From assembly GCA_965204375.1 (NCBI GenBank), contig OZ241986.1, positions 3,552,001 through 3,616,000 on the forward strand: 64,000 nt of DNA. Direction: 5' to 3'. This document shows positions 33,087 through 61,519 of the stretch, piece after piece; position 1 is the stretch's first letter, and every line of letters starts with the position of its first letter. The notes beneath the pieces are model-generated. The model was not told the DNA's origin. It saw nothing but the letters and a program-made list of their open reading frames with translations, and made no database searches. Source of the DNA: Candidatus Latescibacterota bacterium (GTDB taxonomy: Bacteria > Latescibacterota > UBA2968). The translations under genes were made by a program, and so were the position numbers.

Positions 33087-33129
33087 AGAACTAAAAAACC
33101 ACGCCCAAAGGACGTGGTTTTTTAGTTCT
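33087..33129. terminator. Bidirectional terminator at the left edge of the accessory block
   Basis: Perfect 17-bp inverted repeat AGAACTAAAAAACCACG-N9-CGTGGTTTTTTAGTTCT. Confidence 0.85.
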
Positions 33130-33775
33130 AAGATCGCTTTTTTTGTTTTGACCTTTTAAATTTACCTCGAATATACATCACAAATTCTTTGCCTCGGTAT
33201 AGGATTAACGAAATAAACACACCCACCGCCATTATAGAATCGTACCAGGAATTGTATTCAATCGATAGCTGACAGCCGAACTCAAGGTAGATGAGATAAG
33301 CCTGCAACACAATAACAATAAGGGGAAAAATTCCTGCATAGAATATCCAAACACAATTTGAAAAAGAAGGGTAATCTGTGAGATATGATTTACCCTCTCT
33401 AGTGTATATAGAATCATCTCCAAGAAGAGAAGAAATGGTATCTTCAAGTTTATGTAGATATTTATACTGTCGATCTACCGTAATGGAATTCTGACAGTAG
33501 CGTAGCATGATAACTAGAAAAACCGTCCATGTTGCGCTTGTGATAATGGAGATAGGGAGAGCATTGAGAACATTAAGAGATTTCTTTGTGCTTGAAGTGC
33601 TTATTTCATTGAATATCCTCTGAAGATCATCCGGATACTGCACCTCCAAGAATAAAGAACCAAGGAGCGCAATAAGTACTAGAAATAGCAAGTCTCTCTG
33701 CTTCTCCCTTTCCCGAATTTGAGAGAAGCTTTCTTTGTAATGGTCGTGTAAAATATTGAGATCAGGAATATCCAT
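33128..33775 (-). CDS. 4-TM membrane protein, candidate TIR-associated effector
   Basis: Four hydrophobic segments with conserved-looking HY...R and RQY.YL..LE stretches; starts 9 bp after the TIR gene stop. Confidence 0.65.
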   Translation of the reverse strand: MDIPDLNILHDHYKESFSQIREREKQRDLLFLVLIALLGSLFLEVQYPDDLQRIFNEISTSSTKKSLNVLNALPISIITSATWTVFLVIMLRYCQNSITVDRQYKYLHKLEDTISSLLGDDSIYTREGKSYLTDYPSFSNCVWIFYAGIFPLIVIVLQAYLIYLEFGCQLSIEYNSWYDSIMAVGVFISLILYRGKEFVMYIRGKFKRSKQKKRS

Positions 33776-33784
33776 GGCGTAGCT

Positions 33785-34210
33785 TCACGCTTTCCTAATA
33801 GCCCTAAGAATAGCCTCAACCGTGAAACTCATAGCCCATTCAGCACCTTTTCCATAGAGGGGATCTGGAGACGTATTCGATGAGTCAATTTTGACAGCAA
33901 TAAACCCTTTCCTCTCTTCCGCGCTCTTATTGATTTCCCACCACTGCCAATTTCGATCACCTATCTCCTTTCTGTCACGATGATAACTATTAGCGTGTTT
34001 ACCAATGATAACAAGAGTATGGGTAGCCTCACGAATTTTACTAGTGAGGACTGCCTTAATACGGGAGATATCTTCACTTTGGATTTCCTCCGGCGTACAG
34101 TCATCAAAGTCAATATCTGAGCTCGGATTTGCAACTAGCGCATTGAGAAGATATCGATAGTGCCGATCATGATCATAGTCGAAGCTTATGAAGACTCGTT
34201 TCTTTGCCAT
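33785..34210 (-). CDS. TIR-domain protein, MTH538/DUF1863 (Thoeris ThsB-like)
   Basis: KKRVFISFDYDHD, TLVIIG, WQWWEI (catalytic Glu position), RBS AGGAGG. Confidence 0.85.
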   Translation of the reverse strand: MAKKRVFISFDYDHDRHYRYLLNALVANPSSDIDFDDCTPEEIQSEDISRIKAVLTSKIREATHTLVIIGKHANSYHRDRKEIGDRNWQWWEINKSAEERKGFIAVKIDSSNTSPDPLYGKGAEWAMSFTVEAILRAIRKA

Positions 34211-34373
34211 TCTTACCTCCTGGGGTTTTATGGTGATGCTTTGGTAATTACATCGAGAATATTGCCAAATGTTGGCGGGGCTAAGCGCATCTCTGAACCG
34301 CGAAGCGGTTGGGAGAAGGGATGAATGCTCTGAAGTTTGGGGCAGAGGTGCTGTTAGGTCCTACTATGGTTTG

Positions 34374-35385
34374 CTAAGGAGCATCGAATGTGATTCCGAT
34401 TGCCGCCGAAATTGGTCCCGAGCGTCGATTGAATATAGTAAACAGCCCCTCATCATTTCTACTTTGAGTGATATATCCTTCTCCGCACGTAACAAGAAGA
34501 TGTGCAACAAAATGTTCTAAGCGCCACCCGACTTCATGTTCTGCCGAATTGTACGGTTCTGGAAGCCCGACCTGCAGATCTTCATAACAGGGCACGCGCT
34601 GAGAATCAAAACTTTGGAGTGCTTGTCTAACCGACTCTGATCTGACTATGCGACAACCAACTGTGTTTGGGCCTCGGGGGTTCCTTGTAGTAGTCCGTGG
34701 AACATTGTAAGTAGAGGGGACGCGTAGTGGATGATAGAACATGTAGTGGACAGGAATTCCTGTGCTATTTTCATATTCCTCTATGCGTTCATACTGATCG
34801 TTACCCTTCCTTAGCGCCTCGTATCTGCTTGTTTGTTTGAATCTAAACTTCCGTGACTCAGAAACAGCGAGATAGGTTTCCTCTGATTCGAATAGACGTC
34901 CAAATCCCCAGAGATAGTCCAAAGGCTGATCCTCATCAGAGTCCACTTGTGGGGTAAAGTCGCTTGGACTGGAGAAGTGCGACCTTGCTTCGGACGAATT
35001 GCCCGGCCTGTCGAAACATCACCAGAAAGCCGATATCGGCAATTTCCCACGATCCAAAGTGCCGTCCACCCCCGAGATAATAAGTGTCAAGCCGAACTGT
35101 CCATCCGGAACCGAGCCTTACAGGAGCCGAATAATTCGAAAGATGCTCAATGAAAGTCATGTCCAGAGAAGTTTCATGAACATTCGGCATTTTAGAGATT
35201 TTTCTTGACACAGCCAGGTTGCAGGCTTCAAAAATATTCTCTAAAAATGCCAGAACATCGTCAGGCAGATAGATTTGATTCAATTTGGCTTCCTCGATTT
35301 GGGCAGAATGATCCAGTGGTGCAAACCTTACCAGAAAAGCAAATGAATCTACCCACGTTTGAAAGGGCACTGCTTCAAGAGTCAT
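34374..35385 (-). pseudogene. Frameshifted PD-(D/E)XK-like (QxK) nuclease-fold gene
   Basis: ORFs 34936-35385 and 34374-34946 overlap in different frames; EIADIG...LLQSKRLYP then continues as DSDEDQPLDY in the other frame; breakpoint near 34950. Confidence 0.6.
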
Positions 35386-36470
35386 GGAATAGGAGGAAAA
35401 GATACAGTTTTTTTTGACCTGCTCCTGTCTCGGTCTTTAGAAACGTACTTCACATTGTGATAGTCCCTGTACCAGGCGACAAAATTTGCAAGTCCTGTTT
35501 CTATGGGCGTTGTGGGATTATAGCCCACATCTCGCATGAGATCCGATACGTCTGCGGCATTATCCGTGAAGTCTCCAGGCTGTATGGGCATATCTTTTCG
35601 GATCGCTTTTTTGCCCAGCAAGTCCTCTAATAGCGAGAGGAAATACTCTAATTCTATGACGTTGTGATTGCCGATATTGTAAATCCGATAGGGGCTGGAA
35701 CTCGATCCCGGGTCGGGGCATTGTCCCGTCCATTCGGGATCTGGCTTTGCGGGGTTTGACAAGACGCGAGTTACGCCTTCGACTATGTCGCCGACATACG
35801 TAAAACTGCGACGCATCTTGCCGTGATTATAGACTTTGACAGGTCGATTTTTCAGGATGGCTCTGGTCCACAGATAGGCAACCCCATCCGGACGTCCCCA
35901 GGGTCCATAGACGGAGAAAAAGCGCAATCCCGTCGTGGGAATATCGTATAGATGGCTATACGAATGCGCCATTAGTTCATCGGCTTTTTTTGTCGCTGCG
36001 TACAGGCTGAGGGGATGATCGACATTTTGGTGGATGTTAGCGGGTGTGGTGGTGTTCAAGCCATAAACAGAACTCGACGAGGCATAGACCAGATGTTCAA
36101 TACCGCAATGGCGACATCCTTCCAGGATGTTGAGAAATCCCATGACATTGCTTTTGACGAAGGCCTGGGGATTTTTCAGGCTATAAGGCATACCCGCCTG
36201 GGCCGCGAGGTTGATGACGTGAGAAAAGTTCTCTTCGCGGAAGAGGTTTGTTATTCCCGCTTCGTCCTCGAGGTGCATGCGAACAAATTTGAATCCGCTT
36301 TCCCGTTTTAGAATGGATAGGCGGTCTTCTTTGAGTTGAGTACTGTAATAACCGTTCACATTGTCCAATCCGACTACTGAATGCCCCATTTCAAGCAGTT
36401 GTCTGGAGAGATGAAATCCAATGAATCCCGCAGCACCTGTTACGAGTACGTGTCGCGCAGCATCAGTCAT
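35382..36470 (-). CDS. NAD-dependent epimerase, UDP-glucuronate 4-epimerase-like
   Basis: VTGAAGFIG, NLAAQAG, ASSSSVYG, YAATKK, RFFSVYGPWGRPD; ATG at 36470 after AAGGAG. Confidence 0.9.
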   Translation of the reverse strand: MTDAARHVLVTGAAGFIGFHLSRQLLEMGHSVVGLDNVNGYYSTQLKEDRLSILKRESGFKFVRMHLEDEAGITNLFREENFSHVINLAAQAGMPYSLKNPQAFVKSNVMGFLNILEGCRHCGIEHLVYASSSSVYGLNTTTPANIHQNVDHPLSLYAATKKADELMAHSYSHLYDIPTTGLRFFSVYGPWGRPDGVAYLWTRAILKNRPVKVYNHGKMRRSFTYVGDIVEGVTRVLSNPAKPDPEWTGQCPDPGSSSSPYRIYNIGNHNVIELEYFLSLLEDLLGKKAIRKDMPIQPGDFTDNAADVSDLMRDVGYNPTTPIETGLANFVAWYRDYHNVKYVSKDRDRSRSKKTVSFPPIP

Positions 36471-36504
36471 GTTACAAATCTTCTCCTTATCCCTCTCATA
36501 AAAA

Positions 36505-37530
36505 CTATTCGAGCAATTGTATTGCCATCTCAATAACCGGATCTTTTTTTATAACCTCGTCAGAAGATGGCACCTCAACGTGAATATCCGGAGGAATACC
36601 AACGCCTTCATACATAACATGATCTGCCGAAAACCACTTCCCAATAGAGATTCTATATACCCAACCATTGGGAAGTTCTCGATACATGTTAGGTGCCATG
36701 CTACCTGCCGTCACGTCTCCAACTATCCTGACATAAGGAAATAGCTTCATTGCCAATACGAAATATTCCCCACCACTTATTGTTCGTCTATCCGTGAGTA
36801 CAATAATGGGTTTGGTAAATTGTTTTTCTCCTGCAGGCTCGACATATCTTTCTCGAATAGGAGTAAAATCTGAATGGCGAGGTCCATTGCGCCTTTGCAA
36901 AAGAGAGGACAGTTTCTTCTGGTCTGCAAAGCGTCCCACTACCGCTTCGACGTTGACTCCGTTTCCTCCAGAATTATTTCTTACATCTACAATGAAACCC
37001 CTGTGATCAAAAAACTCGTTTACAATGGGATCTATAGCTTCTACCCAAGCACTGCCATTCCTGCTACTGAAAGACGCAATGTGTAAATAGCCTATGGTAT
37101 CAGAGATTTGACCAGACGTAAAAAAACCGTTCCCTGTGGTTTGAAACCCAGAACGCAAGTATTTACTCTTCACAAGATCCAAATTGAGCGTCCCTTCAGG
37201 TCGTCCCTTTGCATGGCTTGAGATGAATCTCTCAAACGGCGCAATCAGATACACATGTTCATCGTCTAAATGAGCCAGCATTGAAGACATAATTTCAAAG
37301 AGAGCATTGTCGTTCGTCTGATCGGTGACTTGCGGCGCATAGATGTCATACAGGGCATTCCAATCAATGTTTTTCACCTTAAACAGGGCATAATAGCGGT
37401 CAAATTCATCCCATAAAATTTGAAAATTGTTCTGTGGGGTATTGGCGGGATCAGAACCGACTAGGATTTCGCCACAAGAAAACAATACAGGCAAAAGGAT
37501 GATACCGACTATTCGGGTTAAAAAACGCAA
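36505..37530 (-). CDS. S41 family peptidase, lipoprotein
   Basis: Lipobox VLFSC; Tricorn C1-like N-terminus; DVRNNSGG, TISGGE, IVGDVTAG, EGVGIPPD. Confidence 0.88.
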   Translation of the reverse strand: MRFLTRIVGIILLPVLFSCGEILVGSDPANTPQNNFQILWDEFDRYYALFKVKNIDWNALYDIYAPQVTDQTNDNALFEIMSSMLAHLDDEHVYLIAPFERFISSHAKGRPEGTLNLDLVKSKYLRSGFQTTGNGFFTSGQISDTIGYLHIASFSSRNGSAWVEAIDPIVNEFFDHRGFIVDVRNNSGGNGVNVEAVVGRFADQKKLSSLLQRRNGPRHSDFTPIRERYVEPAGEKQFTKPIIVLTDRRTISGGEYFVLAMKLFPYVRIVGDVTAGSMAPNMYRELPNGWVYRISIGKWFSADHVMYEGVGIPPDIHVEVPSSDEVIKKDPVIEMAIQLLE

Positions 37531-37542
37531 TGCCTATCCCTT

Positions 37543-38295
37543 TCAAAATTGGAACGAGATGCCCCCACTAAGTCCGTGAAAGACTGAAATTGTTTTTCGA
37601 GGTTGGGAATACCGCTGGTAGAGAAACCAATATGCCAGGCGCAACTTGAAATAAGCAGAAAGGGTGTGTTCATAAAGTGAGGAAAACCGTAAACGTTGAT
37701 AACCATTGAGACTGATCAACCGATTCGTTATATCTAGCGAATTTACGGCATAACTATTTCGCAATAAATAACCTAAAACTGGAATAGATAAAAAGAAAAC
37801 GACTCTTTGTTTTTCAAAGGGTAATAGCTCGCACAAAAGGGCTATATTGAGAGTCGAGACTGCTGTGCCCGTTGGTGCACCACTATAATTAGAGGAAAAA
37901 AAAGAATAATCTCTGGCAGAGACCATAATATCCCAGTTCCCCCCCAACCAAAAAGTCCTATTGGCACTCGAACCCCCTGACAATAGATGCGTATACCCGT
38001 ATTGCAATTGCCCGTAATAATGGTCAGCGAGACTCTTGCGTGCAGATGTTTTTAATTCACCTGTCATAATATGTACTTGCACCCAATGCTGATTCTTCAT
38101 CCCTTTGTAATTGTAAAAAACCCCAATTTTTTTTTGATTTCCTTCATACAGCAGCGGCGATGCCAGATCATCTCTATTTATGTAATTCGTTAGCCCTACA
38201 TCAATGCCGATTTGGTGTGTGTTTTTTCCAAATACTACCGTTGAATGCAGGACCAAAAGGATGGCGATGAGAATGGTGAATACTTTCAGGTTCAT
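37543..38295 (-). CDS. Outer-membrane beta-barrel protein
   Basis: Signal peptide, D..SPLLY.G, alternating beta strands, C-terminal ISFQF. Confidence 0.65.
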   Translation of the reverse strand: MNLKVFTILIAILLVLHSTVVFGKNTHQIGIDVGLTNYINRDDLASPLLYEGNQKKIGVFYNYKGMKNQHWVQVHIMTGELKTSARKSLADHYYGQLQYGYTHLLSGGSSANRTFWLGGNWDIMVSARDYSFFSSNYSGAPTGTAVSTLNIALLCELLPFEKQRVVFFLSIPVLGYLLRNSYAVNSLDITNRLISLNGYQRLRFSSLYEHTLSAYFKLRLAYWFLYQRYSQPRKTISVFHGLSGGISFQF

Positions 38296-39482
38296 TGCGC
38301 CAACACCCGGCGATAGATGTCAATCCAATTTTCAGTTTCTTGAGCCAGAGAAAATTGATTTGCTACTTTCTTTTTTCCTGCCCTACCAATCCTCTTTCGG
38401 AGTTCCATATCCTCAAGTAATAGTTGCAATTTTTGCGATAACATATCGGCGTCATCCGTAGGAACAAGCAGGCCATTCTTATTATCTTCAACTATATCAA
38501 CAATACCACCGACTTGAGAAGCCACAATGGGTAGTTCACAGGCCATCGCTTCTATGAGTGCATTTGGCGACCCTTCATGAAGCGAAGATAAGGCAAAAAT
38601 ATCCATCTCTTTCATCCACGCCATCACCTCCCGATGTGGAATATAACCCGTAAATACAACTTGCCGTTTGAGTCCCGAGTCACTGATTTGCTTCAACATA
38701 TCTCTTTTGTAGGATTCTTGTATAAACTTACCAACAACAAGCAAGCAAGTATCGGGATAAACTTTTACTACCCTCTCAAATGCCTGTAAGAGAATGTGAA
38801 ACCCCTTTACGGGCCGCAAAAGTCCAGCTGTCCCAATGACTGCTCCCCCTTGTGATTTCATCCGTAAAAAGGTTTCAGTAAGTATTTGCAGTCTATCGTT
38901 GTGCTCTCTTGTTATTTCTAAAAGTGCGCGTGCATCAAATATCGATGCATCAAACACATTGAGCATGACTTTTCCCTCTTTGACCCTTACCATTTGATGA
39001 ATTTTTTGCATGAGTTCAGATGATACCGACGTTACATAATCTGCTCGTTCTAATACCCACCTTAGATTTGCTGCGTGTTGGATGCTATATCGCAAAACTT
39101 CCCAATCGCTACCTCTGACACTAACAATGAAGGGGCGCTCAATTTCAGTAGCCACAATTGCACCTAAAAATCCAGGGGGCATGAGAAAAGCGGCATGAAC
39201 TAAATCAAAGTTTTGTTCTTTATGAAGGTTAAAAATATAGTCACCAAGCACTTGTAAACTATACGGATCAGCGTGGTATTTTGATAATATCGAAAATGTT
39301 CGATGTACTGTCACGTCATCTTCTATGACAGGTGATATCTTATCTCTTAATTGATAGGGACCTGGCGCGATAATATGGATATTAACACCCTGTTTTGCCA
39401 GATTTTTAGCAATCCTATAAATTGCACTTCCCACTCCTCCAGGATAAGGGGGATATTGGTACGAAATCAGACAGATATTCAT
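38292..39482 (-). CDS. Glycosyltransferase family 4
   Basis: YPPYPGGV, KG..ILL.A, HEGSPNALIEAMAC..P, VGGIVDIV. Confidence 0.9.
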   Translation of the reverse strand: MNICLISYQYPPYPGGVGSAIYRIAKNLAKQGVNIHIIAPGPYQLRDKISPVIEDDVTVHRTFSILSKYHADPYSLQVLGDYIFNLHKEQNFDLVHAAFLMPPGFLGAIVATEIERPFIVSVRGSDWEVLRYSIQHAANLRWVLERADYVTSVSSELMQKIHQMVRVKEGKVMLNVFDASIFDARALLEITREHNDRLQILTETFLRMKSQGGAVIGTAGLLRPVKGFHILLQAFERVVKVYPDTCLLVVGKFIQESYKRDMLKQISDSGLKRQVVFTGYIPHREVMAWMKEMDIFALSSLHEGSPNALIEAMACELPIVASQVGGIVDIVEDNKNGLLVPTDDADMLSQKLQLLLEDMELRKRIGRAGKKKVANQFSLAQETENWIDIYRRVLAQ

Positions 39483-39497
39483 ATTTACCTCATGATG

Positions 39498-40295
39498 TCA
39501 CGAATTGGGTTTTCGCGCTGTAATTTCTCCGAATAGAAGGGATAGATATTTGAAGGGATAATAATGATGTTTACCAAATTCGGTCAAAGCAGGTTGACCA
39601 TTGATCTTGGTAATCATATATCGGGAAGACTGGCTGGCGGTGAAACCAATTAACTTGCAAGAGCGAATTTCTTCAAAACCGGCACTATATATAGCACTTA
39701 TATGTTCTTCAAGAGTAGGTGTTTTATATGCAAAGATTCTATTAAACTCCGCCATCTCTCGTTTTTCTTCACTCGATGCTCCCTCTTTATCCAAGAAATA
39801 GACATCCTTGATATATAGCTTCCCCCTTGGACGCAGTACCCGGAAAACTTCCTCAAAAAGACGTTGGCGATCATAAGCATAGCCCGCAGATTCAAAAAAA
39901 AATACGACATCAAAGGATGAATCAAAAAATGGAAGGTCATGATAATCGCCTCTATAGACTTGAATTCTCGAGGATAGTCTCGCTTGCTGAATCAGTCTCT
40001 TAGCTATTTTTGCCTGAACTTCGGAAAGCGTAATCGCATCAATGTGAACGCCCTGAGTGTTCAAAGCAATGTCAATACTTGGTCCGCAGACACCACAACC
40101 ACAGTCTAAAATTCGGTGACCTGATTGAATGCCAGCACGAGAGGCCAGATATAGGTTGGTCGTTTTGGCTGTATTTCTTCGGGAATGTGACAATTGAATT
40201 GCCTGAAGGCTTGTACCCACATATTTCAAATAAACTTCAGTCATTGTGTCGTAATAATCGCATACTTTTTCAATGTATGCTTTGTGATCTTCCAT
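39498..40295 (-). CDS. SAM-dependent methyltransferase (sterol/tocopherol/prenyl C-MT-like)
   Basis: YYD, ILDCGCGVCGP, ITLSEVQ, GDYHDLPF.DSSFD, FES, RVLRP.GKL. Confidence 0.85.
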   Translation of the reverse strand: MEDHKAYIEKVCDYYDTMTEVYLKYVGTSLQAIQLSHSRRNTAKTTNLYLASRAGIQSGHRILDCGCGVCGPSIDIALNTQGVHIDAITLSEVQAKIAKRLIQQARLSSRIQVYRGDYHDLPFFDSSFDVVFFFESAGYAYDRQRLFEEVFRVLRPRGKLYIKDVYFLDKEGASSEEKREMAEFNRIFAYKTPTLEEHISAIYSAGFEEIRSCKLIGFTASQSSRYMITKINGQPALTEFGKHHYYPFKYLSLLFGEITARKPNS

Positions 40296-40296
40296 A

Positions 40297-41547
40297 TCAC
40301 ATCATCATCCTTGTTAATCGCTTCGCAATTCGGTATATAGCAAGGCCGAACATCAGAATGATCAGAGAGGGAAAGAAAAAGTCCGACAATGCACTCCCAA
40401 TATTTCGCCAATTCCCCACTGCAAAACTGTTTATTATCTCGCTAAAAGTCTTATACACTAAGCCAGGATAGTTTGTAACTAGATCGGGAAACAAAAAGAA
40501 AATCTTGTAAAAAAACAGAAAGAAGAAACTGGTGCTAACGATTCCATACAGCAAAAGAAACGATTTCATTTTACCACTGATGTGCAAAAAGACAGGTTCA
40601 GCGACCCCTTTTTGTTTTAAGACGAAACGTTTCGCAAAGTATTTCAGAATTTCTAAAGACCTTTTTCTGAGATTGGGTACGCCTATTATATCGGAAAAAA
40701 GCCAATACCCATCAAAGCGGAAAATTGGATTCAAGTTAAACAGTGCTGAACCGTAGTTAAGGAGAATCGCGTACAAAAATATGCTACTTGATGTCATTAG
40801 ATACAAAATGAAGAGTATGGGAACAAAAATAAGCTGAAAATATATGCCACCAAAGTCCACCATCGCACGTTGAGTTCTCGGCAGTCTCCAAGCATCCGTT
40901 ACATCAGCATAGAGAACGGGAAATCTAAAATATAATCCTATTCCTATCTCTCCAGGAAACACACCATAATAGGCACAGGCAGAAGAATGACCTAATTCAT
41001 GAAAGATCGCTAAAATACCAAAAATTATTAGCCCAAAGATAGCTTCTTGAAACGAAATATCATAAATAACAATATCTATGACTTGAAAAACAAAAAAATA
41101 AAAGTATAAAAAGAAGACGAAAGAGAAGAAAATAAAGAAGATCAGAATTCTTGGATTATAGAGAATTTTTAAAATATGACTAATGGACTGAACTACATTC
41201 TCCCGAATAATGGGATATTGAAAATACAAATATGAACTACTTTTTTGAATACTGTCATCTGAGTTTGTGTTTTCAAGGATGCCATAGGGCACAAGAAATG
41301 AATGGATAATTGCATCAATGTCTTTGGTAGAATAAGTCTTGTTTCTGACAGTAGAGTATTCGTTTGCAATTTCAGACAGTGTTTTTTTTCCATCTATCAA
41401 CTCTAAGATCTGATAGATACCTTCGCTTATTTCAAACCGTTTCGTACCTATACATAAAACATAACTCTCCTTAGCCAAAGAAGTATCGAATTTATACATC
41501 GAAACTTTAGGAACCAACTTAATCGGGTCTGGTAGGGACTCTTGCAT
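40297..41547 (-). CDS. RRE(PqqD-like)-fused M50 intramembrane zinc metallopeptidase (YydH-like RiPP peptidase)
   Basis: N-terminal wHTH (ILELIDGKKTLSEIA); HELGH; YADVTDAW; NLNPIFRFDGYW. Confidence 0.85.
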   Translation of the reverse strand: MQESLPDPIKLVPKVSMYKFDTSLAKESYVLCIGTKRFEISEGIYQILELIDGKKTLSEIANEYSTVRNKTYSTKDIDAIIHSFLVPYGILENTNSDDSIQKSSSYLYFQYPIIRENVVQSISHILKILYNPRILIFFIFFSFVFFLYFYFFVFQVIDIVIYDISFQEAIFGLIIFGILAIFHELGHSSACAYYGVFPGEIGIGLYFRFPVLYADVTDAWRLPRTQRAMVDFGGIYFQLIFVPILFILYLMTSSSIFLYAILLNYGSALFNLNPIFRFDGYWLFSDIIGVPNLRKRSLEILKYFAKRFVLKQKGVAEPVFLHISGKMKSFLLLYGIVSTSFFFLFFYKIFFLFPDLVTNYPGLVYKTFSEIINSFAVGNWRNIGSALSDFFFPSLIILMFGLAIYRIAKRLTRMMM

Positions 41548-41724
41548 GATATATTCCTATCTCAATTGTTCGCGGCGGGATCTATGGTGGCATCCAAACC
41601 TGATGCTTAGCACGGAATTTGGATGCCGCTGATCACGGAAAACAACGGGGGAAAGCACATCCTTTTTTGCTCGGCGCATTCTATGCCATCTTTAAACTAT
41701 CTACTTTGCAGGTGGTCGCTTGCG

Positions 41725-42729
41725 CTAAAATTTTTCGCTTTCTTTCAGCATCACAAGTTTACTTACCCGATCAATTTCTCGCTCCTTGGCCGCCTTCAAA
41801 TTGCGGAGCATAACTGACGTTTCAGATATGCAGGTGTCAAGAGCAATCTTCCAGTCCGTGCAAGGAATATTTTCAACATACGACAATGATTGTCGATAAT
41901 AATCTATGGAATAATCGAGAATTTCTTCTGCCAGCCCTGTAAAATAAATCATGCGTGCCAGTTCTTCCAGAGTAATAGATTCTAATTTTTTTTTCAGTCC
42001 CTTTCTTTCAATGATTTGAGACAAAAGATACGAATATCTTCCAGCCAAAAAATCTATGCGCCAATCTTTAAGATCATCACGAAACTGTAGTCCTGTAAAA
42101 AAAGCATCTAAGGATTTTTCAAAGGGCCGGATCAGATCGGGGGAATGAGATAAACAGGCTAGAGCAGTTGTCGCCATTTGGGCGGTAGAGGCTTTATCTG
42201 AGGCAATTTTAAACGCCTCATCCAAAGAATAAGAAGTGGGATTATTCCATTTTGTTCTTTCTTCTAATGTTGCAGTAATAACGCGCCGTTGGTACTTTTT
42301 GGCAAAGACCCAAAAATCCGAACTTTTTGAAAATAAATCATTTAGCAACACATACGCATGATCCCTTAAAAGTGAAACTAAAAAATAGGCATCTACTTTA
42401 AGTGCTTCTTGCTCATCAAAAATATCGTCCATATACATTGTATAGAGATATATTGATCTATTAGCAAAATATAATTTCTTATGCGTATCTTCATCTAAAA
42501 CAAATGCCTGTGAGAACAGATATGTAAAGGAAGTATATATATCATTACCCAAAAATATGGGATCTTGTAAAGCCGTCTCCAAGTTATACTCTTCACAAAT
42601 CTGCGATATGAATTGATAAAATTCTACTTCGGATTTTTTAATAGATATATCGTCCTGAAGGCCAAAATTCAATGAAGAAATTTCATCCTCCAGAGACTCA
42701 AATGGGTCTAATGGTAAATGCTTATCCAT
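41725..42729 (-). CDS. Class I isoprenoid-synthase-fold enzyme (ComQ-like prenyltransferase or terpene synthase)
   Basis: Two Asp-rich motifs, YMDDIFDE and QFRDDLKDW, with DKAS before the second; no RRG loop after the first motif. Confidence 0.75.
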   Translation of the reverse strand: MDKHLPLDPFESLEDEISSLNFGLQDDISIKKSEVEFYQFISQICEEYNLETALQDPIFLGNDIYTSFTYLFSQAFVLDEDTHKKLYFANRSIYLYTMYMDDIFDEQEALKVDAYFLVSLLRDHAYVLLNDLFSKSSDFWVFAKKYQRRVITATLEERTKWNNPTSYSLDEAFKIASDKASTAQMATTALACLSHSPDLIRPFEKSLDAFFTGLQFRDDLKDWRIDFLAGRYSYLLSQIIERKGLKKKLESITLEELARMIYFTGLAEEILDYSIDYYRQSLSYVENIPCTDWKIALDTCISETSVMLRNLKAAKEREIDRVSKLVMLKESEKF

Positions 42730-42804
42730 ATAAAGGTCCTTGGTGAAAACTCCGAAAGAGATGGGTTTGCTTGCTGCATCGGGTAGTCAAGCCATAGTTA
42801 TTCT

Positions 42805-45228
42805 TCAATTGAGCCGTGCAAAACTAGCCCGTATTGAAAACCCATCCTCGTCCAGCCTTTTGGTCGCGTCAATGCGTATCAAGTGATATATGTTTAAAGA
42901 GATACCGGCTTCGTGATAGAATTTGTCGAGGACATGGGGATCATATTGCAGGGTGTCTAATTTCTCTTTTGATATCCAAGTTCGCCCCGATCCACCATAT
43001 AGTATGACCTCAAAGCCATTTCTAGCCAAATATTCCATATTGAAAATTTCAAAGGGTGCAGAGCGAAAATTGTGCTGCCAGTAAACACCGAAATATTTTT
43101 CGCCTTCATAAGGATAGCCACCTAAATGCTTGAAAGTGCCAAATGAGGTGAAGGGACGCCAAACATCCAAAACGCCGAAACGCTGTACGGGTAAATCACC
43201 CGTAAAAGTTCCAGCCGTAACGCGAACATCTAAAACATTGGGTACTGCACGACGCTTCAAGAATGTTTCAATACGCCAATCAAAACCCAAATCGTATTTG
43301 ACATAAGAGAAATCGCTTTTTAAGAGATCTAAAGAACCCCATTCAACCCAAGCAGTTGCACACTTATAACGAGACTCTCGAAAGCGAAATCTGAAATCAA
43401 TATAACGAAGCCGACCTTCATCAATGGGTGGATTTATGCGTTGGCTTATATCTCTTCCCAGAATGTTGAAATCCGTCTGTTTGCTCAACAAAGAGTGCTT
43501 TTCATCATGGAATCCCAAAGACAATCTCCCTTTTCCCCGCGAAAATCGCTGTGTAATATCAAAATTCGCAGATTTGCGCCAATAATAATCGTAGTAATCG
43601 TCCAATCCCAGTAGGGTAAAGCCACTTTGCAAAGCAACGTCGGTCAAATTGCCAAGACCGTAATTGAGATTGCCAGAACCGTAATGATAAGAATGATACC
43701 GTTCGGCGATAGCGGTTTGATGATAAAATCGTAGTTCACCGACATTCCTTGTTCCCCTACCCCATCCATACCGGAATCTAATAAGATAAGGCCTGTAGGA
43801 GAGGCCCTGAGAATATTCTCCTCCCAAGTCCAATCCATATCGTCTTCCCGTAGCTTGATTGAGCAGTGCTGAGTAAATGATCATATTCACTCTCGCCATG
43901 CTTACACGATTATAGCCTCCCGGATTAATACGCCACCCAAAAATAGGTCTCCATCCCTTGCGTCTCTGAGATTTTTTTGCAGATTTTAACGACTCTAAGC
44001 TCATTTGAGTCCAACGCGCTATCGGACCAGAAGGCGGGAATGCCTTGCGAATAGTCAATTTTTCATCAATTTCACGATATGCTTTTTTTTCCCTTGCGCT
44101 ATTAGGAAATCTTGTGAACAAGCTGTCCCTCCGAATCGAAACAGAATCAACTGAAACAATCTGGTTTTGCTCGAAAATTGACGTGGAAAGTTTTTTGTTT
44201 ACCTCGAAATTGTTTAACTGTGTAATGACCGTTATTTTGCCTTTGGGAATCTTTAGTACCCCAGGTATTGATACCCTCCCTTCAATCTGCAGGTGAAAAT
44301 CAATGGGCAACCACACATCGTCGCCAAATCTCTGAAACTGTTGGAGAAAGGAGACTTGTACCCCCCTGACAAAGGAAACGAACGAAAATACAATCGGACT
44401 AGGGTTTACTTCTGCGCGTAAGATTACAAAGGCTTCATCTAAAACAAATACCCGGCCCATAAAAGCTGGTTGGAGTTTGGTCTTAGGACGCAGGGATATT
44501 TCATAGATAGTCTGTCCACCATTGTATTGTTGCTCACGCAACTCAAAACGGTAAAAATCGAGTGCGTCTGGATGTGTAGGACCAATAATACGGTTTCCCG
44601 CGAAAACAATCTCATCATCATAAATGTTGGGCAGCGATTTGAGAGCTTTAAAAACTGAATATGTATATAACCATTCTGGCACGTTTTTGGTATGGCGTTT
44701 AGACACAATAAACTCGCGAAAACCCCGATCGCGATCCCAATGAATTTCAGACACCAGATCTCCTATCCCAACAATACGCGCTTCATTTTCAACATTTTCA
44801 GCGACTTGCCGCGTATATGCCATCGCCTTAAAACGCTTCAGCTTTGGACGCCATTGACCCTTTTTCTCAATGACTTTTTGCATAATTGCCGATCCCATAT
44901 CAGACGTTACAACAATTTCCTCAAACGGGTATGCCACAGGCTGCATTTTGATGGACAGAACCTCAGCAGCCTCATTCACGAAAACCTTCTGATCAGCATA
45001 TCCAATATGCGTAATAAGCAACGTGACAGGTAATCCTGAGACCTCGAGCACAAATACACCGTCTTCATTAGATATCGTTGCAAAAAATGTATCCTTAGCT
45101 CTAATATTGGCAGTCGCTAATGGCTGCCTGCTATCCGCATCGACAATTTTACCGGAGATCATAACTTGACCATTTGCACTTTCACAAAATACAAGGAAGA
45201 TATACGCCACTATAATGAAAATCCTCAT
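42805..45228 (-). CDS. Outer-membrane protein, carboxypeptidase-regulatory-like domain plus DUF5686-like barrel
   Basis: Signal peptide; ISGKIVDADSRQPLATANI, SNEDGVF, HIGY; IIGP...A...YRF; aromatic-rich beta C-terminus. Confidence 0.75.
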   Translation of the reverse strand: MRIFIIVAYIFLVFCESANGQVMISGKIVDADSRQPLATANIRAKDTFFATISNEDGVFVLEVSGLPVTLLITHIGYADQKVFVNEAAEVLSIKMQPVAYPFEEIVVTSDMGSAIMQKVIEKKGQWRPKLKRFKAMAYTRQVAENVENEARIVGIGDLVSEIHWDRDRGFREFIVSKRHTKNVPEWLYTYSVFKALKSLPNIYDDEIVFAGNRIIGPTHPDALDFYRFELREQQYNGGQTIYEISLRPKTKLQPAFMGRVFVLDEAFVILRAEVNPSPIVFSFVSFVRGVQVSFLQQFQRFGDDVWLPIDFHLQIEGRVSIPGVLKIPKGKITVITQLNNFEVNKKLSTSIFEQNQIVSVDSVSIRRDSLFTRFPNSAREKKAYREIDEKLTIRKAFPPSGPIARWTQMSLESLKSAKKSQRRKGWRPIFGWRINPGGYNRVSMARVNMIIYSALLNQATGRRYGLDLGGEYSQGLSYRPYLIRFRYGWGRGTRNVGELRFYHQTAIAERYHSYHYGSGNLNYGLGNLTDVALQSGFTLLGLDDYYDYYWRKSANFDITQRFSRGKGRLSLGFHDEKHSLLSKQTDFNILGRDISQRINPPIDEGRLRYIDFRFRFRESRYKCATAWVEWGSLDLLKSDFSYVKYDLGFDWRIETFLKRRAVPNVLDVRVTAGTFTGDLPVQRFGVLDVWRPFTSFGTFKHLGGYPYEGEKYFGVYWQHNFRSAPFEIFNMEYLARNGFEVILYGGSGRTWISKEKLDTLQYDPHVLDKFYHEAGISLNIYHLIRIDATKRLDEDGFSIRASFARLN

Positions 45229-45280
45229 AGCATCCCCAATATCTCTGATAGAATCTCTAAATTCTGTCTCTCTTGCAATG

Positions 45281-45313
45281 AAAACTACCTGCTTGCAATA
45301 GGCAAGCAGGTAG
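45281..45313 (-). terminator. Intrinsic terminator downstream of precursor A
   Basis: Minus strand reads CTACCTGCTTGC-ctatt-GCAAGCAGGTAG-TTTT. Confidence 0.75.
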
Positions 45314-45449
45314 ACAGGCCAATACTGTAATTAAAGTTTTTTTTACTCTCAGAACCGAAGTCGTCAACTTCACTAACTATGCACTTTGAAACGAGGCAGT
45401 GGATTGCTGGTTATTTGCCTTCTACAAAAGCATTCTCAGGTACTATTAC

Positions 45450-45701
45450 CTAAGAGCCATCATCATCACTACCATCATCACTACCATCATCACTACCATC
45501 ATCATCATTATTATTATTTTCTATACCACAACCATTGTCAGCATCATCGCATCCGATGTTGATGTAGCATGCTGTAAAAGGAGACATTTCGAGTCTTTCT
45601 TCAAGAACATCAACGGCCAGATCCTCATACAGTTCAGGATATGAGATAATATGTGCTTTGAGATCGGTTTCCGAAGAAATTTGGGAAGAAAATTTATCCA
45701 T
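45450..45701 (-). CDS. Putative RiPP precursor peptide A (83 aa)
   Basis: RBS AAGGAGGG; leader ending VLEERLEM; core SPFTACYINIGCDDADNGCGIE; acidic tail (DDGS)n; directly downstream of rSAM/SPASM. Confidence 0.8.
   Translation of the reverse strand: MDKFSSQISSETDLKAHIISYPELYEDLAVDVLEERLEMSPFTACYINIGCDDADNGCGIENNNNDDDGSDDGSDDGSDDDGS
45461..45496. repeat. 3 x 12-bp tandem repeat encoding DDGS
   Basis: CATCATCACTAC x3, followed by CAT/TAT triplet runs. Confidence 0.9.
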
Positions 45702-45803
45702 GATACTACCCTCCTTAATTAAAGGTTACTTGATTAAAGACTTATATAGATGACATCATTGTTGATACTGGCATCAAAACATAGTATCTCCTTTCTTGAA
45801 AAT

Positions 45804-47561
45804 TTATACACTTTGTAAGGTCTGTTGTTTACACTCCTCAAATATCTCAGGCACAATCGTATGAAAAACTCTGGGATACTCATCGCAATAGGATGTCTTG
45901 ATATTGCCGTTATTCTTTACATAAGCATGTGCAGCACACCCACCGCCGCAAAAGAAAGCATATTTGCACTTACTACAAGATGGTACATTGGAAATATTCC
46001 GATCATACCACTCTGATAAACGTTTATCATTGAATTCAACTTTATCTACAAAACTTCCAACTTTATACCGCTCTACCCCCACTAAGTCCCAGCACGTATA
46101 GAGATCTCCATAAGGATCAAAGATCAACATATTGGTCTGTGCACCACAGAAAACAGGCTTGAAACTCAACAGTCCCTTGCCCTCAAAAGCCTTCTTGAAG
46201 GTCTGTCTAATGCCATAGTCCTGGCAAGAAATTTGATGCATCATGTCGGGGTTTTCTTTTGCAAACTGATAGTATTTGCGCGTGAATTCTCTTCTTGGTA
46301 TCACTGAAATTTCGCCGTTTTGAGGCTGGTTTGATTCCATCTCTTGAGATATTTTTTCCTGGTTAATTGGATGTGTACCGTTTTGGTAGTTCAAGAAAAT
46401 TTCTTCCTCTCGTTCTACATCTATGTATTGCTCTTCATCTATGAGCATTTCAGAAGCGGTGTGCAACTGTGCCTGGAGTTCAAGTTTCTCAGAAGTTTTC
46501 TGTTTTTTACTCTCACTGAAGGATATGACAGAGGCAACAGACTCGGCGGATCCGAAATCTGCTGCTGGTGCTTCAATTGAAATAAGAGGGGCTGTTTGAC
46601 CATAATTGCCTGGCGTCTTTTTACCGGACATTGTAGCACTACACGACATGCCCTCTTCAACCTGATGTACCAAAGCAGAATAGGCTGAAAATTTTGGATA
46701 CTCTGTAAATCCTCTATCTTTGAACAAATCAAATAATGCAGGCAAAATATCCACATTGTCGTAATCTGTATTGATCCGCATTGAAATCTGCACATCAAGC
46801 GACAGGGCAAGTGCCACATTTTTTATTATGGCGTCAAAGCTATCTCTCGCACGATAATGTGGACGCTTGCGATTGTGATTTTCTTCTTCGCCATCTAAGG
46901 TGATCTGAAGACGCCCGATTTTTTTCGGACTTAATAGGTCTGTGAAATGGTGGAGGTCATATCCATTTGTAATGGCTTTAAAAGTGTAACCGCGTTTCAA
47001 ACCTTCATCTACGATATACTTCACGATCTCTTTATTTTTGGCCAATAAAGGCTCTCCACCATATAGAGTAATGTTTTTGCTATGCATGGCTTTATTGGGC
47101 TGGATTTCACACATTGCTTGGTATGCACGGTCAACCATTTCTTTTGTAAATACCTGCTTTGACCAACCCCTTCCATAATCTGAAATGCCATTTTCAAAAC
47201 AATAGGGACAGCGGAAGTTACAATCATAGGCCACCAAGAAAAGGAAAGATGCGGCACTGTGGCTTGCGGTATGATGAAGAAAGTTCGCCATGCTATGCAC
47301 GTATTCTCGTTCTTCCACAGGTGAACGGCTAGTCATATAGCCCCGCTTCATCAATGTATGGATCGTCTCTTTTGAACAAGGCAGTTGATCAAACATATCT
47401 TCAGAGATAACAATCCGACTCTTTATCATCCGAGCAACTTCTTTATTCACTCTATCTATTGCGCCCGTATATCCGTGAACGAGCAGAGAGTGATTTGGAT
47501 CTTCAGGCAAATTGACACAAATTGTATAGGATGATACGCGATATAACTCTGAACTTGCCAT
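45804..47561 (-). CDS. Radical SAM/SPASM peptide maturase A
   Basis: CNFRCPYC; YGGEPLL; SPASM CGA...CW...CSKCKYAFFCGGGC...C; N-terminal RRE-like region. Confidence 0.9.
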   Translation of the reverse strand: MASSELYRVSSYTICVNLPEDPNHSLLVHGYTGAIDRVNKEVARMIKSRIVISEDMFDQLPCSKETIHTLMKRGYMTSRSPVEEREYVHSMANFLHHTASHSAASFLFLVAYDCNFRCPYCFENGISDYGRGWSKQVFTKEMVDRAYQAMCEIQPNKAMHSKNITLYGGEPLLAKNKEIVKYIVDEGLKRGYTFKAITNGYDLHHFTDLLSPKKIGRLQITLDGEEENHNRKRPHYRARDSFDAIIKNVALALSLDVQISMRINTDYDNVDILPALFDLFKDRGFTEYPKFSAYSALVHQVEEGMSCSATMSGKKTPGNYGQTAPLISIEAPAADFGSAESVASVISFSESKKQKTSEKLELQAQLHTASEMLIDEEQYIDVEREEEIFLNYQNGTHPINQEKISQEMESNQPQNGEISVIPRREFTRKYYQFAKENPDMMHQISCQDYGIRQTFKKAFEGKGLLSFKPVFCGAQTNMLIFDPYGDLYTCWDLVGVERYKVGSFVDKVEFNDKRLSEWYDRNISNVPSCSKCKYAFFCGGGCAAHAYVKNNGNIKTSYCDEYPRVFHTIVPEIFEECKQQTLQSV

Positions 47562-47908: not shown

Positions 47909-48616
47909 CTAATCTGCAAAATTTGTTCCAGTTGCTACTTTTTTTCGATATATTGTCGGACTAACTCCATACTTCTCTTTGAAAATCTTGCTAAAAGTCG
48001 ATAAAGATCCAAATCCACACAGGTAAGCAATTTCCGAAAGGGTATATGATGTGTTCTTCAACGCTTCCTCAGCCTTTGTTAGGCGTACATTCCGAAGGCA
48101 CATCCTGAATGGCATTCCCAGGTGCTTTTTAAATAATTTATGTCCATAGCTTTCCGAGAACCTGAAATGACGCATGATATCTTCAAATCTCAGCTTTGGA
48201 TTGCTGTAATTCGCCTCCAAAAATGATTCCAACCAACTCTTCCAAATATCTTGTAGAGGCATATATTTTTTGACCTTCGCCAAAAACACATCTTTCTTGA
48301 TGGGTTTATCAAATACACTCGCTGCACCAGCCTTGATCGCTTCCGCGCCCAATTCCATTTTTCCCAAACTTGTCATGATCAGTATAGTTGTCTGAATTTT
48401 TTCCGCCTTCACACGCTTCAATAGTGTCATACCATCCATACCCTTTATCTTCATCTCAACGACAGCAAGGCCGATCTCCTCTTTTCTTAAAATTTCAAGG
48501 CCTTCTATCCCGTTTCTCGCCGCGAATACTTCATAAAGTTCATCTCTCAAGAATCCTACAAGTTCTGATATTACAAATGGTTCATCATCTACAATCAAAA
48601 TTTGCTGCTTGTCCAT
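47909..48616 (-). CDS. Response regulator, REC plus AraC HTH (atypical receiver)
   Basis: ILIVDDE, VVEMKIKGMDG, KP; AraC motif EIAYLCGF...FSKIFKEKYGVSP..YR. Confidence 0.85.
   Translation of the reverse strand: MDKQQILIVDDEPFVISELVGFLRDELYEVFAARNGIEGLEILRKEEIGLAVVEMKIKGMDGMTLLKRVKAEKIQTTILIMTSLGKMELGAEAIKAGAASVFDKPIKKDVFLAKVKKYMPLQDIWKSWLESFLEANYSNPKLRFEDIMRHFRFSESYGHKLFKKHLGMPFRMCLRNVRLTKAEEALKNTSYTLSEIAYLCGFGSLSTFSKIFKEKYGVSPTIYRKKVATGTNFAD
47915..47931 (-). promoter_or_regulatory. Candidate sigma54 -24/-12 promoter facing RiPP locus A
   Basis: Minus strand CTGGAACAAATTTTGCA (GG-N10-GC), inside the last codons of the regulator. Confidence 0.4.
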
Positions 48617-53847: not shown

Positions 53848-54732
53848 TCAAAAAAACGTATTGACGATTATCATATAACAGGCATTCTGTTTTCTCTTCA
53901 GAGTGTCTGGTAGGAGTGTAGCATTTCGGCTCGTAAACTCCTGGATGCGCTCAGGCTTCACCCCATAGATATTGCGGAGGGTATTAAACAGGCCGATCAG
54001 ATCTGTTTCACTGTTAGTAGCTTTAGCCAACGCGCTCAAATACACATCATCAATATGCGATAATGCCTTTGCTATTCGGGAGCGCGTTTCATTGACAGAC
54101 TGAACATCCGAAAGTCTGGCAGGCGCATCCCAACACGGTGTCACGGATTTGATCTTACGCAACACGGCCAGATGGTGGTCCTCGCGGATAATCGACACTG
54201 TAAAACTACTGGGATAGACGGACAGCCAATTCTCGACAATTTGCTTCTCATAAGACCTTCTGAAATCGTCCAGAATGACCAGACCACCAATCTTGATCTG
54301 ATCATAAACCTGGTAAAGGCAGGCCTCCCGACCTCGCAAGGTATAGACAGGCGGACCATCAATAATCACGCAATCCATCTCTTCCTGCCAAAACATCCCA
54401 TCTTCATAAGTCAAAAATTCCGCATCTCCATAAGATTCAAGCGTAATCGGACGATATTTGATCGATAGATTGCGCTTATCCAAAAACTTCTGTATCAAAT
54501 CCGTAGTTTCTCTAAAATTTCGACAATCACCTTCCACAGACAAAACTTGCGCTTCAGGAAACGCCATCGCCAGACGGATAGAACTCGGACCACTTCCAAA
54601 TTCGAGAATTCTTTCTACTGTGGACATCTGAAGAAGCAAGGTCTCTATTCTCCCGAACACTGTCTCACCAATGCTCCAGCCTGTGTCCAGATTAAGCTGA
54701 TCAGGCATTTCAAAATCTGAAATTTTATGCAT
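53848..54732 (-). CDS. Class I SAM-dependent methyltransferase (Methyltransf_24-like)
   Basis: ILEFGSG.SS, IIDGPP, GGLVILDD. Confidence 0.8.
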   Translation of the reverse strand: MHKISDFEMPDQLNLDTGWSIGETVFGRIETLLLQMSTVERILEFGSGPSSIRLAMAFPEAQVLSVEGDCRNFRETTDLIQKFLDKRNLSIKYRPITLESYGDAEFLTYEDGMFWQEEMDCVIIDGPPVYTLRGREACLYQVYDQIKIGGLVILDDFRRSYEKQIVENWLSVYPSSFTVSIIREDHHLAVLRKIKSVTPCWDAPARLSDVQSVNETRSRIAKALSHIDDVYLSALAKATNSETDLIGLFNTLRNIYGVKPERIQEFTSRNATLLPDTLKRKQNACYMIIVNTFF

Positions 54733-54747
54733 TTCTCACTTCTCTGC

Positions 54748-56178: not shown

Positions 56179-56202
56179 GCCTTGTACTCCTGAGAATCGA
56201 AA

Positions 56203-56391: not shown

Positions 56392-56446
56392 ATTACCCTC
56401 CCTCAATACAAAAATCTAAAATGTGGTCACGATCTGTCCTTAATAC

Positions 56447-61506: not shown

Positions 61507-61519
61507 AAATGCAACCACC

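Follow-up and report, generated by a model that had tools for sequence, protein, structure and literature searches.

A low-GC gene cluster in Candidatus Latescibacterota combines a radical SAM/SPASM maturase, a Cys-rich precursor peptide and a candidate peptide prenyltransferase of the trans-isoprenyl-diphosphate-synthase type

We analyzed a 64,000-nucleotide stretch of contig OZ241986.1 from a Candidatus Latescibacterota bacterium (the window; positions 3,552,001 to 3,616,000 of the forward strand), which carries a candidate gene cluster for a peptide that is made on ribosomes and modified after translation (a RiPP). A preliminary description of the window had placed ten genes in this cluster, and the listing of open reading frames (ORFs) bears out their order and coordinates: all ten are minus-strand genes within 35382–47561, point in one direction and are spaced by −4 to 221 nt (Table 1). 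Read from the 5′ end, they encode a radical S-adenosylmethionine (rSAM)/SPASM maturase, an 83-residue precursor peptide, a large outer-membrane protein, a 334-residue prenyltransferase-like protein, an HExxH (M50-like) metalloprotease, a methyltransferase, a glycosyltransferase of the GT4 type, a secreted 250-residue protein, an S41 peptidase and a nucleotide-sugar epimerase. Pfam and NCBIfam models label seven of these proteins, and those without a match are the 83-residue peptide, the 334-residue protein and the 250-residue protein. The locus, with its maturase, precursor and daptide-type HExxH protease, is a RiPP cluster and has conserved counterparts elsewhere, in agreement with the earlier reading.

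Table 1. Features of the cluster and its surroundings, in window coordinates unless a genome and contig prefix is given (RRE, RiPP recognition element; SAM, S-adenosylmethionine; HTH, helix-turn-helix)
Feature	Position	Strand	Basis or composition
NAD-dependent nucleotide-sugar epimerase/dehydratase	35382..36533	-	Pfam Epimerase, E 3.2e-54; TviC 132.8 bits (cut-off 760)
S41 C-terminal-processing-type serine peptidase, lipoprotein-like signal	36505..37530	-	Peptidase_S41, E 3.4e-28; Tricorn_C1; GC 0.428
Secreted 250-residue protein, C-terminal F	37543..38295	-	No Pfam match
GT4 retaining-type glycosyltransferase, 396 residues	38292..39482	-	Pfam Glycos_transf_1, E 2.5e-38
Class I SAM methyltransferase, 265 residues, accessory	39498..40295	-	Pfam Methyltransf_11
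Intramembrane HExxH (M50-like) metalloprotease, 416 residues, N-terminal PqqD/RRE-like segment; proposed leader peptidase	40297..41547	-	
Stand-alone trans-isoprenyl-diphosphate-synthase-like protein, 334 residues; proposed peptide prenyltransferase	41725..42729	-	
Outer-membrane protein, 807 residues; candidate export component	42805..45228	-	Pfam CarboxypepD_reg + DUF5686
Hairpin resembling a terminator (12 pairs, 7 of them G-C; T-rich tail), immediately 3′ of the precursor gene	45285..45313	-	Consensus match
Precursor peptide, 83 residues: 39-residue leader ending LEERLEM, 44-residue acidic core with 3 Cys	45450..45701	-	
12-nt tandem repeat coding the DDGS repeat tail of the precursor	45457..45517	.	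Repeat search
Radical SAM/SPASM peptide maturase, 585 residues, low-complexity insertion of ~130 residues	45804..47561	-	Pfam Radical_SAM; SPASM TIGR04085
Response regulator with AraC-type HTH	47909..48616	-	Pfam Response_reg + HTH_18; GC 0.394
Paralogous locus L003, same genome	G000:C1:4434127-4447215		
Related locus L025, genome G091	G091:C1:988000-1007999		

The gene arrangement is not due to chance: the source genome carries a paralogous copy (L003) at a distance of 0.85 Mb, and other genomes as well as metagenomes contain related loci. L003 contains, in order, genes for the rSAM enzyme (83% identity; identities given with the loci are to the window's genes), a precursor, an ABC ATPase, an 1122-residue permease, an 864-residue double glycosyltransferase, the prenyltransferase-like protein (76%), the M50 protease (80%) and GT4 (80%). 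The ABC ATPase, the permease/Golvesin_C protein and the double glycosyltransferase thus replace the DUF5686 protein, the methyltransferase, the 250-residue protein and the S41 peptidase. An IS3-like transposase gene follows L003, and its precursor core differs from that of the window, with ECICDEF repeats and 12 Cys. Two further loci belong to Candidatus Latescibacterota metagenome-assembled genomes (MAGs): OZ220741.1 (L005) is laid out as L003 is, and OZ244028.1 (L004) encodes a regulator, the rSAM enzyme, a precursor, the 250-residue protein, S41, a GT1-type glycosyltransferase, the prenyltransferase-like protein, M50, GT4 and a second 250-residue protein with S41. On one metagenome contig (L006), the rSAM gene (42%) is followed by genes for a 75-residue precursor, a prenyltransferase-like protein (40%), a CarboxypepD_reg/Plug receptor-like protein and M50 (40.5%), with no GT4 gene; the leader of this precursor ends ELEERLEM and its core begins SCYINFGC. 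Another (L007) encodes an rSAM enzyme (37%), an 83-residue peptide with a related leader and a prenyltransferase-like protein (28%), with no M50 gene within 10 kb and no GT4 gene. In genome G091, L025 comprises a permease gene, an rSAM gene (77%), two precursor genes interleaved with Sel1-repeat genes, and genes for a GT4-like enzyme, the 250-residue protein and S41. A metagenome search with a smaller alignment (A3) gave three loci among 276 pattern matches, and a scan of genome contigs gave two among 54.

Across the seven loci (five of them from one genus), the precursor gene adjoins the rSAM gene in every case, and a prenyltransferase-like gene is present in six, an M50 gene in five and a GT4-type gene in five. 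The 250-residue protein with S41 is found in three, a large outer-membrane protein in two, an epimerase nearby in two (both in this genome) and the methyltransferase in one. The order rSAM–precursor–prenyltransferase is kept in six of the seven, over prenyltransferase identities from 100% down to 28%. The preliminary description had named a lack of conserved synteny in other genomes among the findings that would speak against it, and the order is indeed conserved across the related loci. The prenyltransferase-like and M50 genes occur together in five loci and are jointly missing in G091. Each of the four same-genus loci with M50 has its GT4 gene (~80% identity) next after M50 or separated from it by the methyltransferase gene, and further glycosyltransferases lie inside L003, L004 and L005. 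Conservation of GT4 is confined to the one genus (five of the seven loci), and this weakens its earlier assignment to the pathway. The genes for glycosylation, methylation and export or trimming are clade-specific. A scan of the phylum with the rSAM enzyme found it in 4 of 168 genomes, all of one genus, and the profile of the prenyltransferase-like protein matched 3 of the 21 genomes of the genus and 5 of the 168 of the phylum; these five include a true polyprenyl synthase and a distant relative whose context is different. The cluster therefore behaves as an accessory island with a patchy distribution.

An AAGGAGG ribosome-binding site lies 7 nt 5′ of the ATG of the precursor gene. Twelve homologues of the 83-residue peptide were found among 5020 candidates, and with the peptides of L005, L006 and L007 they gave an alignment of 16 precursors. 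These have in common a 39-residue leader with the conserved sequence SSExDLKAHIxSYPELYEDLAVDxLEERLEM, after which conservation drops sharply into hypervariable, acidic cores. Fifteen of the cores hold 3–12 Cys and the L007 core holds one; Lys and Arg are missing from 12 of the 16. Trp occurs in 8 of the 16 cores and Tyr in 11, and every core has one or the other; the window core has no Trp. The NNNNDDDGSDDGSDDGSDDDGS tail of the window precursor is encoded by the 12-nt tandem repeat and is missing from the other 15 precursors. A frameshift artefact was considered as the source of this acidic tail and ruled out, the tandem repeat being in frame. The hairpin beyond the stop codon is a possible attenuator, judging from its sequence; the promoter and terminator scan of the window was at chance overall (30 against 35.3 expected, and 10 against 11.2).

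The spacing of residues within the cores defines a motif. In 15 cores (L007 was excluded, its core being of a different kind), Asp, Glu or Asn stands at Cys+3 75 times against a mean of 31.6 in 2000 shuffles (z 10), a count reached by none of the shuffles; the test overstates independence, since the precursors are interrelated, though the cores are their variable part. Ile, Val and Leu are enriched at Cys+1 and Cys+2, as is a Cys–Cys spacing of 5 (z 3.5), and Cxx[DNH][ST] forms the C-terminal end of 12 of the 15 cores and lies near the end of two more. The preliminary description had pointed to a CDDAD string in the window core as a CX3D motif of the kind crosslinked by PapB. The string is present, but Asp or Glu at Cys+4 is at chance across the family (27 seen, 25.3 expected), and the conserved core motif is Cys-x-x-Asp/Glu/Asn, not PapB's CX3D. 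The Cys sites of the window precursor itself are CYIN, CDDA and CGIE, with no C-terminal Cxx[DNH][ST].

The maturase has a radical SAM core (PF04055, E 8.3e-11; CNFRCPYC, a CxxxCxxC motif) and a SPASM domain (TIGR04085, E 8e-17). Its top NCBIfam models are CefB (134.9 bits, cut-off 600), the geopeptide maturase (122.8, cut-off 400) and PapB (122, cut-off 340); TIGR04463 also matches, and the SCIFF model gives 97.9 bits (cut-off 425). The closest solved structure is that of CteB (5wgg, E 7.9e-17). These likenesses agree with its earlier assignment to the thioether-forming rSAM/SPASM maturases, and it reaches none of the CefB, geopeptide, PapB and SCIFF equivalog cut-offs. The L006 homologue does not have the ~130-residue insertion.

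The 334-residue protein has no Pfam or NCBIfam match, and PF00348 does not match it at E ≤ 0.01. Its close homologues number 22 (72–100% identity) among 1756 candidates, and their profile matched no PDB sequence. When 1.84 billion representatives were scanned in full with HMMER, 697 relatives were recovered at E ≤ 1e-3, of which 209 reached E ≤ 1e-10 and 7 reached E ≤ 1e-30. A wider alignment of 52 stand-alone relatives (A2) gave a profile that matched isoprenyl diphosphate synthases of the trans type (trans-IDS) in the PDB (3oyr, E 7.8e-9; 4lob, 4.2e-7; 9kp1_B, 5.5e-6), with both Asp-rich motifs aligned. The AlphaFold2 model built from A2 has a pLDDT of 91.1 and a pTM of 0.87 (single-sequence model, pLDDT 38.3). 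Foldseek placed it against 87 PDB entries at E ≤ 0.001, the top ones trans-prenyl diphosphate synthases with TM 0.54–0.67, and VIA-align gave Z 22.6 to 4lob (rmsd 2.7 Å, 273 residues) and Z 19.6 to Ord1, a prenyltransferase of free Trp. Together, profile and model uphold the class I isoprenoid fold of the preliminary description and assign the protein to the trans-IDS fold. D105, W140, D219 and D226 are invariant in all 52 rows, and D101 (51 of 52), D218 (50) and D222 (50) nearly so. An RRG-type loop after the first Asp motif marks chain-elongating enzymes; neither RRG nor RRR occurs there in any of the 52 rows. Because this loop and a PF00348 match are both missing, the protein is not an ordinary polyprenyl synthase, and a housekeeping enzyme of that kind was rejected as its identity.

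Many relatives of the 334-residue protein are ~680 residues long. Among the 149 relatives listed out of the 697, on which the length classes rest, 60 are shorter than 400 residues, 6 have 400–549, 76 have 550–770 and 7 exceed 770. Of 14 long relatives scanned, nine carry a C-terminal SQHop_cyclase/Prenyltrans alpha-alpha-toroid domain. The fused relatives surfaced only in the full HMMER scan, and a word-index search for longer homologues found none. In a FastTree tree of 152 domain rows, which is a quick tree with many long branches, a group of 10 made up solely of stand-alone proteins (support 85) unites the window protein and its close kin with the L006 protein and with P0023, P0024, P0026 and P0037; this group is sister to a mostly fused clade (support 96), and the L007 protein is placed elsewhere. 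Other domain layouts also occur. Among relatives such as P0038 and P0063, some, of ~1000 residues, join prenyltransferase-like, squalene-hopene-cyclase-like and GldB-like/DUF2268 (predicted Zn protease) domains, and others, of ~915 residues, have no Pfam match across the C-terminal 600 residues.

The M50-type protease of the preliminary description is recognized by the daptide HExxH model (NF041824, E 1.1e-34, 120.3 bits against a cut-off of 300, residues 35–358) and, at 51.4 bits, by the YydH/LiaK model. Its translation contains HELGH (HExxH) and NLNPIFRFDGY (NxxPxxxxDG). The N-terminal RRE-like segment has weak matches, both of them to PqqD: the model TIGR03859 at E 3.4e-4 (20.4 bits, cut-off 46) and the structure 5sxy at E 0.11. 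Since both the rSAM enzyme and the protease miss every NCBIfam equivalog cut-off, neither belongs to a characterized family.

The accessory genes differ in how far they travel with the cluster. The CarboxypepD_reg/Plug receptor-like gene of L006 is flanked by the genes for the prenyltransferase-like protein and M50. The methyltransferase has as its closest solved relatives MitM (E 4.8e-21), 3bus (1e-17) and a glucose O-methyltransferase (4.3e-16), with prenyl-diphosphate C-methyltransferases lower in the match list; no copy was found in L003, L004, L005 or L025, and its occurrence in one of seven loci weakens its earlier assignment to the pathway. GT4 scores 142 bits with the BshA model (cut-off 274), and its closest PDB entries are 5d00 (BshA, N-acetyl-alpha-D-glucosaminyl L-malate synthase) and 2jjm (a group-1 glycosyltransferase). 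The 250-residue protein is probably a small outer-membrane barrel; its nearest Atlas clusters, which offer a lead, are Bacteroidota hypothetical proteins and DUF3316, and it is paired with S41 twice in L004 and once in L025. The S41 and DUF5686 genes each have a second copy elsewhere in the genome (25% and 35% identity, respectively), the two being ~5 kb apart (G000:C1:5350541-5358966), and the two families may work together outside a RiPP context. The start of the epimerase is most likely Met21 (36473), because a 95%-identical paralogue, located 4 kb upstream of L003, aligns from residue 21 on. Membership of the epimerase in the cluster, as proposed earlier, is doubtful: its GC content (0.488) is genome-like, and no epimerase gene was found in the stretches covered at L004, L005, L006, L007 and L025.

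From S41 to the response regulator, the genes have a GC content of 0.353–0.428, compared with 0.508 for the genome. At the edges, the epimerase and a patatin-like gene beyond the regulator (0.507) are host-like; the low-GC island thus spans about 36.5–48.6 kb of the window, and the epimerase probably lies outside it. A patatin-like phospholipase is encoded at 49244-50965. The response regulator is a possible cluster regulator, and in L003 and L004, too, a gene with a receiver domain is found upstream of that for the rSAM enzyme. Insertion sequence (IS) elements lie at the flanks of both cluster copies in the source genome. Tied to a tRNA gene the integration is not, because the 64-kb window has none. 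Low GC and patchy spread (3 of 21 genomes of the genus) support a mobile island, and we lean towards a horizontally mobile RiPP biosynthetic gene cluster. In L025 the GC content is 0.48–0.56, far closer to its surroundings.

Several features of interest lie nearby. A second, different RiPP-like locus on the minus strand (53848-56406) encodes a 476-residue rSAM/SPASM maturase that scores 263.8 bits with the SCIFF model (cut-off 425), 250.9 with QhpD and 230.6 with PapB (cut-off 340); a 67-residue acidic-tailed peptide precedes it and a 294-residue protein without a family match follows it, and a second copy of this rSAM type lies near 3.058 Mb of the genome. Between the two RiPP-like loci is an IS1380-family transposase gene (52380-53738, minus strand; 387 bits, cut-off 180). 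Directly downstream of the epimerase, a minus-strand segment (33128-35385) encodes three small proteins without family matches and, among them, a TIR protein of the ThsB-like kind (Pfam ThsB_TIR, E 3e-10; PADLOC ThsB, E 1.7e-9), and this segment may be a defence islet. A 1637-residue ORF (56704-61617, minus strand) appears by eye to have a Ser/Thr kinase-like N-terminus, a long repeat region and a sigma-54-activator-like C-terminus.

We consider it rather probable that the RiPP cluster is built from modules and works by the following steps. The strong ribosome-binding site and the hairpin after the stop codon suggest that the precursor would be made in excess, and homology suggests that its leader would be bound by the RRE-type N-terminal domain of the maturase. 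The maturase would join the Cys sulfur to a carbon of the Asp, Glu or Asn residue at +3; the motif is statistical and the bond is deduced from it. The rSAM–precursor module thus probably makes Cys-to-(+3) thioether rings, and these small non-alpha rings would be ranthipeptide-like but i,i+3 spaced. Lipidation of the peptide and removal of its leader are the probable tasks of the prenyltransferase–M50 module. Here the stand-alone trans-IDS-like enzyme would put a prenyl group on the peptide, its activity, donor length and acceptor residue all being conjectural; the acceptor cannot always be Trp, because half of the cores have none. The HExxH membrane protease, with its RRE-like segment, would then cut off the leader after LEERLEM, the point at which conservation drops, in line with the daptide and epipeptide precedents. 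In the same-genus clade GT4 would add a sugar, and at the window locus the methyltransferase may add a methyl group, possibly on that sugar. The outer-membrane proteins and the S41 lipoprotein might carry out export and trimming. More specifically, and tentatively, the product may represent a new RiPP subclass: a ranthipeptide-like scaffold (Cys to +3) prenylated by the stand-alone enzyme not on Trp but on Tyr, Cys or a carboxylate and, in the same-genus loci, also glycosylated.

A number of points weigh against this modular pathway. Fold, motifs, linkage and precursor statistics are observed; every chemical step is inferred. The five loci from one genus are not independent, all NCBIfam equivalog cut-offs are missed by rSAM enzyme and protease alike, and the window precursor is atypical, with only 3 Cys, no terminal Cxx[DNH][ST] and a repeat-derived acidic tail. 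Furthermore, G091, which is one contig and 98% complete, has no match to the prenyltransferase-like or M50 queries used, either at the locus or in the whole genome; because it is without both genes, precursors of this family do not strictly require prenylation or cleavage by M50. Gain and loss of the 334-residue protein with M50, and not with the rSAM enzyme, would also fit a RiPP locus in which this protein does not prenylate the peptide and is instead a separate isoprenoid or terpene synthase or a non-catalytic, peptide-binding partner of M50. Consistent with that explanation, distant family members (L008 and L015) sit in contexts unlike RiPP loci, close homologues vary the second motif position (D102 to G/S; D218 and D222 to N in 5–6 of 19), and 8 of the 16 cores have no Trp, though Trp is the only acceptor known for the characterized peptide prenyltransferases of this class. 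We nevertheless regard it as unlikely. In L006 and L007 the gene comes immediately after that for the precursor, and wherever a same-genus locus has M50 (four loci) it adjoins M50; the metal-binding residues D101, D105, D219 and D226 are kept; the missing RRG loop makes chain elongation unlikely; and the fused relatives share the prenyltransferase–cyclase layout of a reported peptide-modifying enzyme.

The chemistry of the maturase and the extent of the pathway could each be read differently as well. A role of the rSAM/SPASM enzyme other than the formation of Cys-to-carbon thioethers (for example C–C or C–O crosslinks, epimerization or another radical modification) seems rather unlikely, since its best models and structure act on Cys-rich precursors (CefB, geopeptide, PapB, TIGR04463 and SCIFF/CteB) and since Cys defines the cores and is positionally coupled to Asp, Glu or Asn at +3. 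Its failure to reach any equivalog cut-off, the cyclophane-forming (YhhB, FxsB), dynobactin and other maturases in its match list, and the insertion missing from the L006 homologue leave some room for such chemistry. A pathway of the rSAM enzyme, precursor, prenyltransferase-like protein and M50 only, with GT4, the methyltransferase, the 250-residue protein, S41 and the epimerase as neighbouring cell-envelope genes, would account for the lack of GT4 in L006 and L007, for the single methyltransferase and for an epimerase that is genome-like in GC and not syntenic outside the source genome; envelope genes commonly include GT4, S41 and epimerases, and S41 and DUF5686 recur as a pair elsewhere in the genome. 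We find this quite unlikely, given that GT4 follows M50 in all four same-genus M50 loci at ~80% identity and shares the low GC, that the 250-residue protein and S41 recur beside the rSAM and precursor genes in L004 and G091, and that L003, L004 and L005 hold more glycosyltransferases. The modular pathway, with thioether formation, prenylation and same-genus glycosylation, thus remains the reading that we prefer.

If the more specific reading, that of a new RiPP subclass, is true, the product would be the first ribosomal peptide to be rSAM-crosslinked as well as prenylated and glycosylated, and the acceptor range of the prenyltransferase class would be widened. Peptide lipidation alters membrane behaviour and bioactivity. 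The coupling of a stand-alone trans-IDS-fold member to a thioether-type rSAM enzyme, with cores that often have no Trp, suggests new acceptor chemistry and a hybrid RiPP scaffold, and a fixed leader with freely varying cores is a layout useful in RiPP engineering. The wider family of the 334-residue protein (697 representatives, about half of those listed being fused to cyclase-like domains) is without a Pfam or NCBIfam model, and the locus provides a testable entry point to it. The preliminary description knew of no characterized pathway with this combination, and we found no paper describing an rSAM/SPASM maturase paired with a trans-IDS-like prenyltransferase, nor, in the literature searched, a report of a trans-IDS-like peptide prenyltransferase with an rSAM/SPASM partner; the supplements and Hubrich et al. 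(Chem 2024, on ChrPC) may bear on whether such a pair has been listed before. In Latescibacterota MAGs, antiSMASH calls 'ranthipeptide' and 'RRE-containing' clusters, according to a published paper (PMC12993501).

Comparison with known systems shows likenesses and differences for each module. Like the ranthipeptide/SCIFF systems (PapB/PapA, freyrasin; CteB/CteA, thermocellin), the cluster has an rSAM/SPASM maturase with an N-terminal leader-binding domain beside a Cys/Asp-rich precursor; unlike them, it has a maturase well short of the PapB and SCIFF cut-offs and with a ~130-residue insertion, and cores with Cys-x-x-Asp/Glu/Asn (i+3) spacing in place of CX3D. To our knowledge, ranthipeptide/SCIFF systems have no prenyltransferase-like, GT4 or HExxH-protease partners. 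The 'Cys-every-fifth' system CefA/CefB (NF038108/NF038107), on which we found no paper in the library searched, supplies the top rSAM model and shares the enriched Cys–Cys spacing of 5; its CefA model is weakly matched by 2 of the 16 precursors (E 0.0016), whereas the maturase lies well under the CefB cut-off. The protease resembles the daptide (MpaP-type) and epipeptide (YydH/LiaK) proteases in carrying HExxH and NxxPxxxxDG in a polytopic protein within a RiPP cluster, and differs in its score of 120 bits against 300 and in the rest of the cluster. With the chain-elongating trans-IDS (FPPS, GGPPS and OPPS), the 334-residue protein shares the fold (Z 20–22.6) and the alignment of the first and second Asp motifs, but not the PF00348 match or the RRG loop, at ~12–16% identity. 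A 2026 review (PMC13290415, section 2.4) counts ComQ and PalQ, together with the P domain of ChrPC, a fused prenyltransferase–cyclase, among the trans-IDS-like peptide prenyltransferases and states that each one characterized acts on Trp; the PalQ paper describes the same superfamily. Half of the cores of the window family differ in having no Trp, and the kinship of the 334-residue protein to ComQ, PalQ and ChrPC is judged from fold and domain layout. Within those bounds, it shares with them the polyprenyl-synthase fold, the Asp-rich motifs and a gene beside a RiPP precursor, it aligns with their structural stand-in Ord1, and fusion to a cyclase-like domain, the layout described for ChrPC, is seen in many of its relatives.

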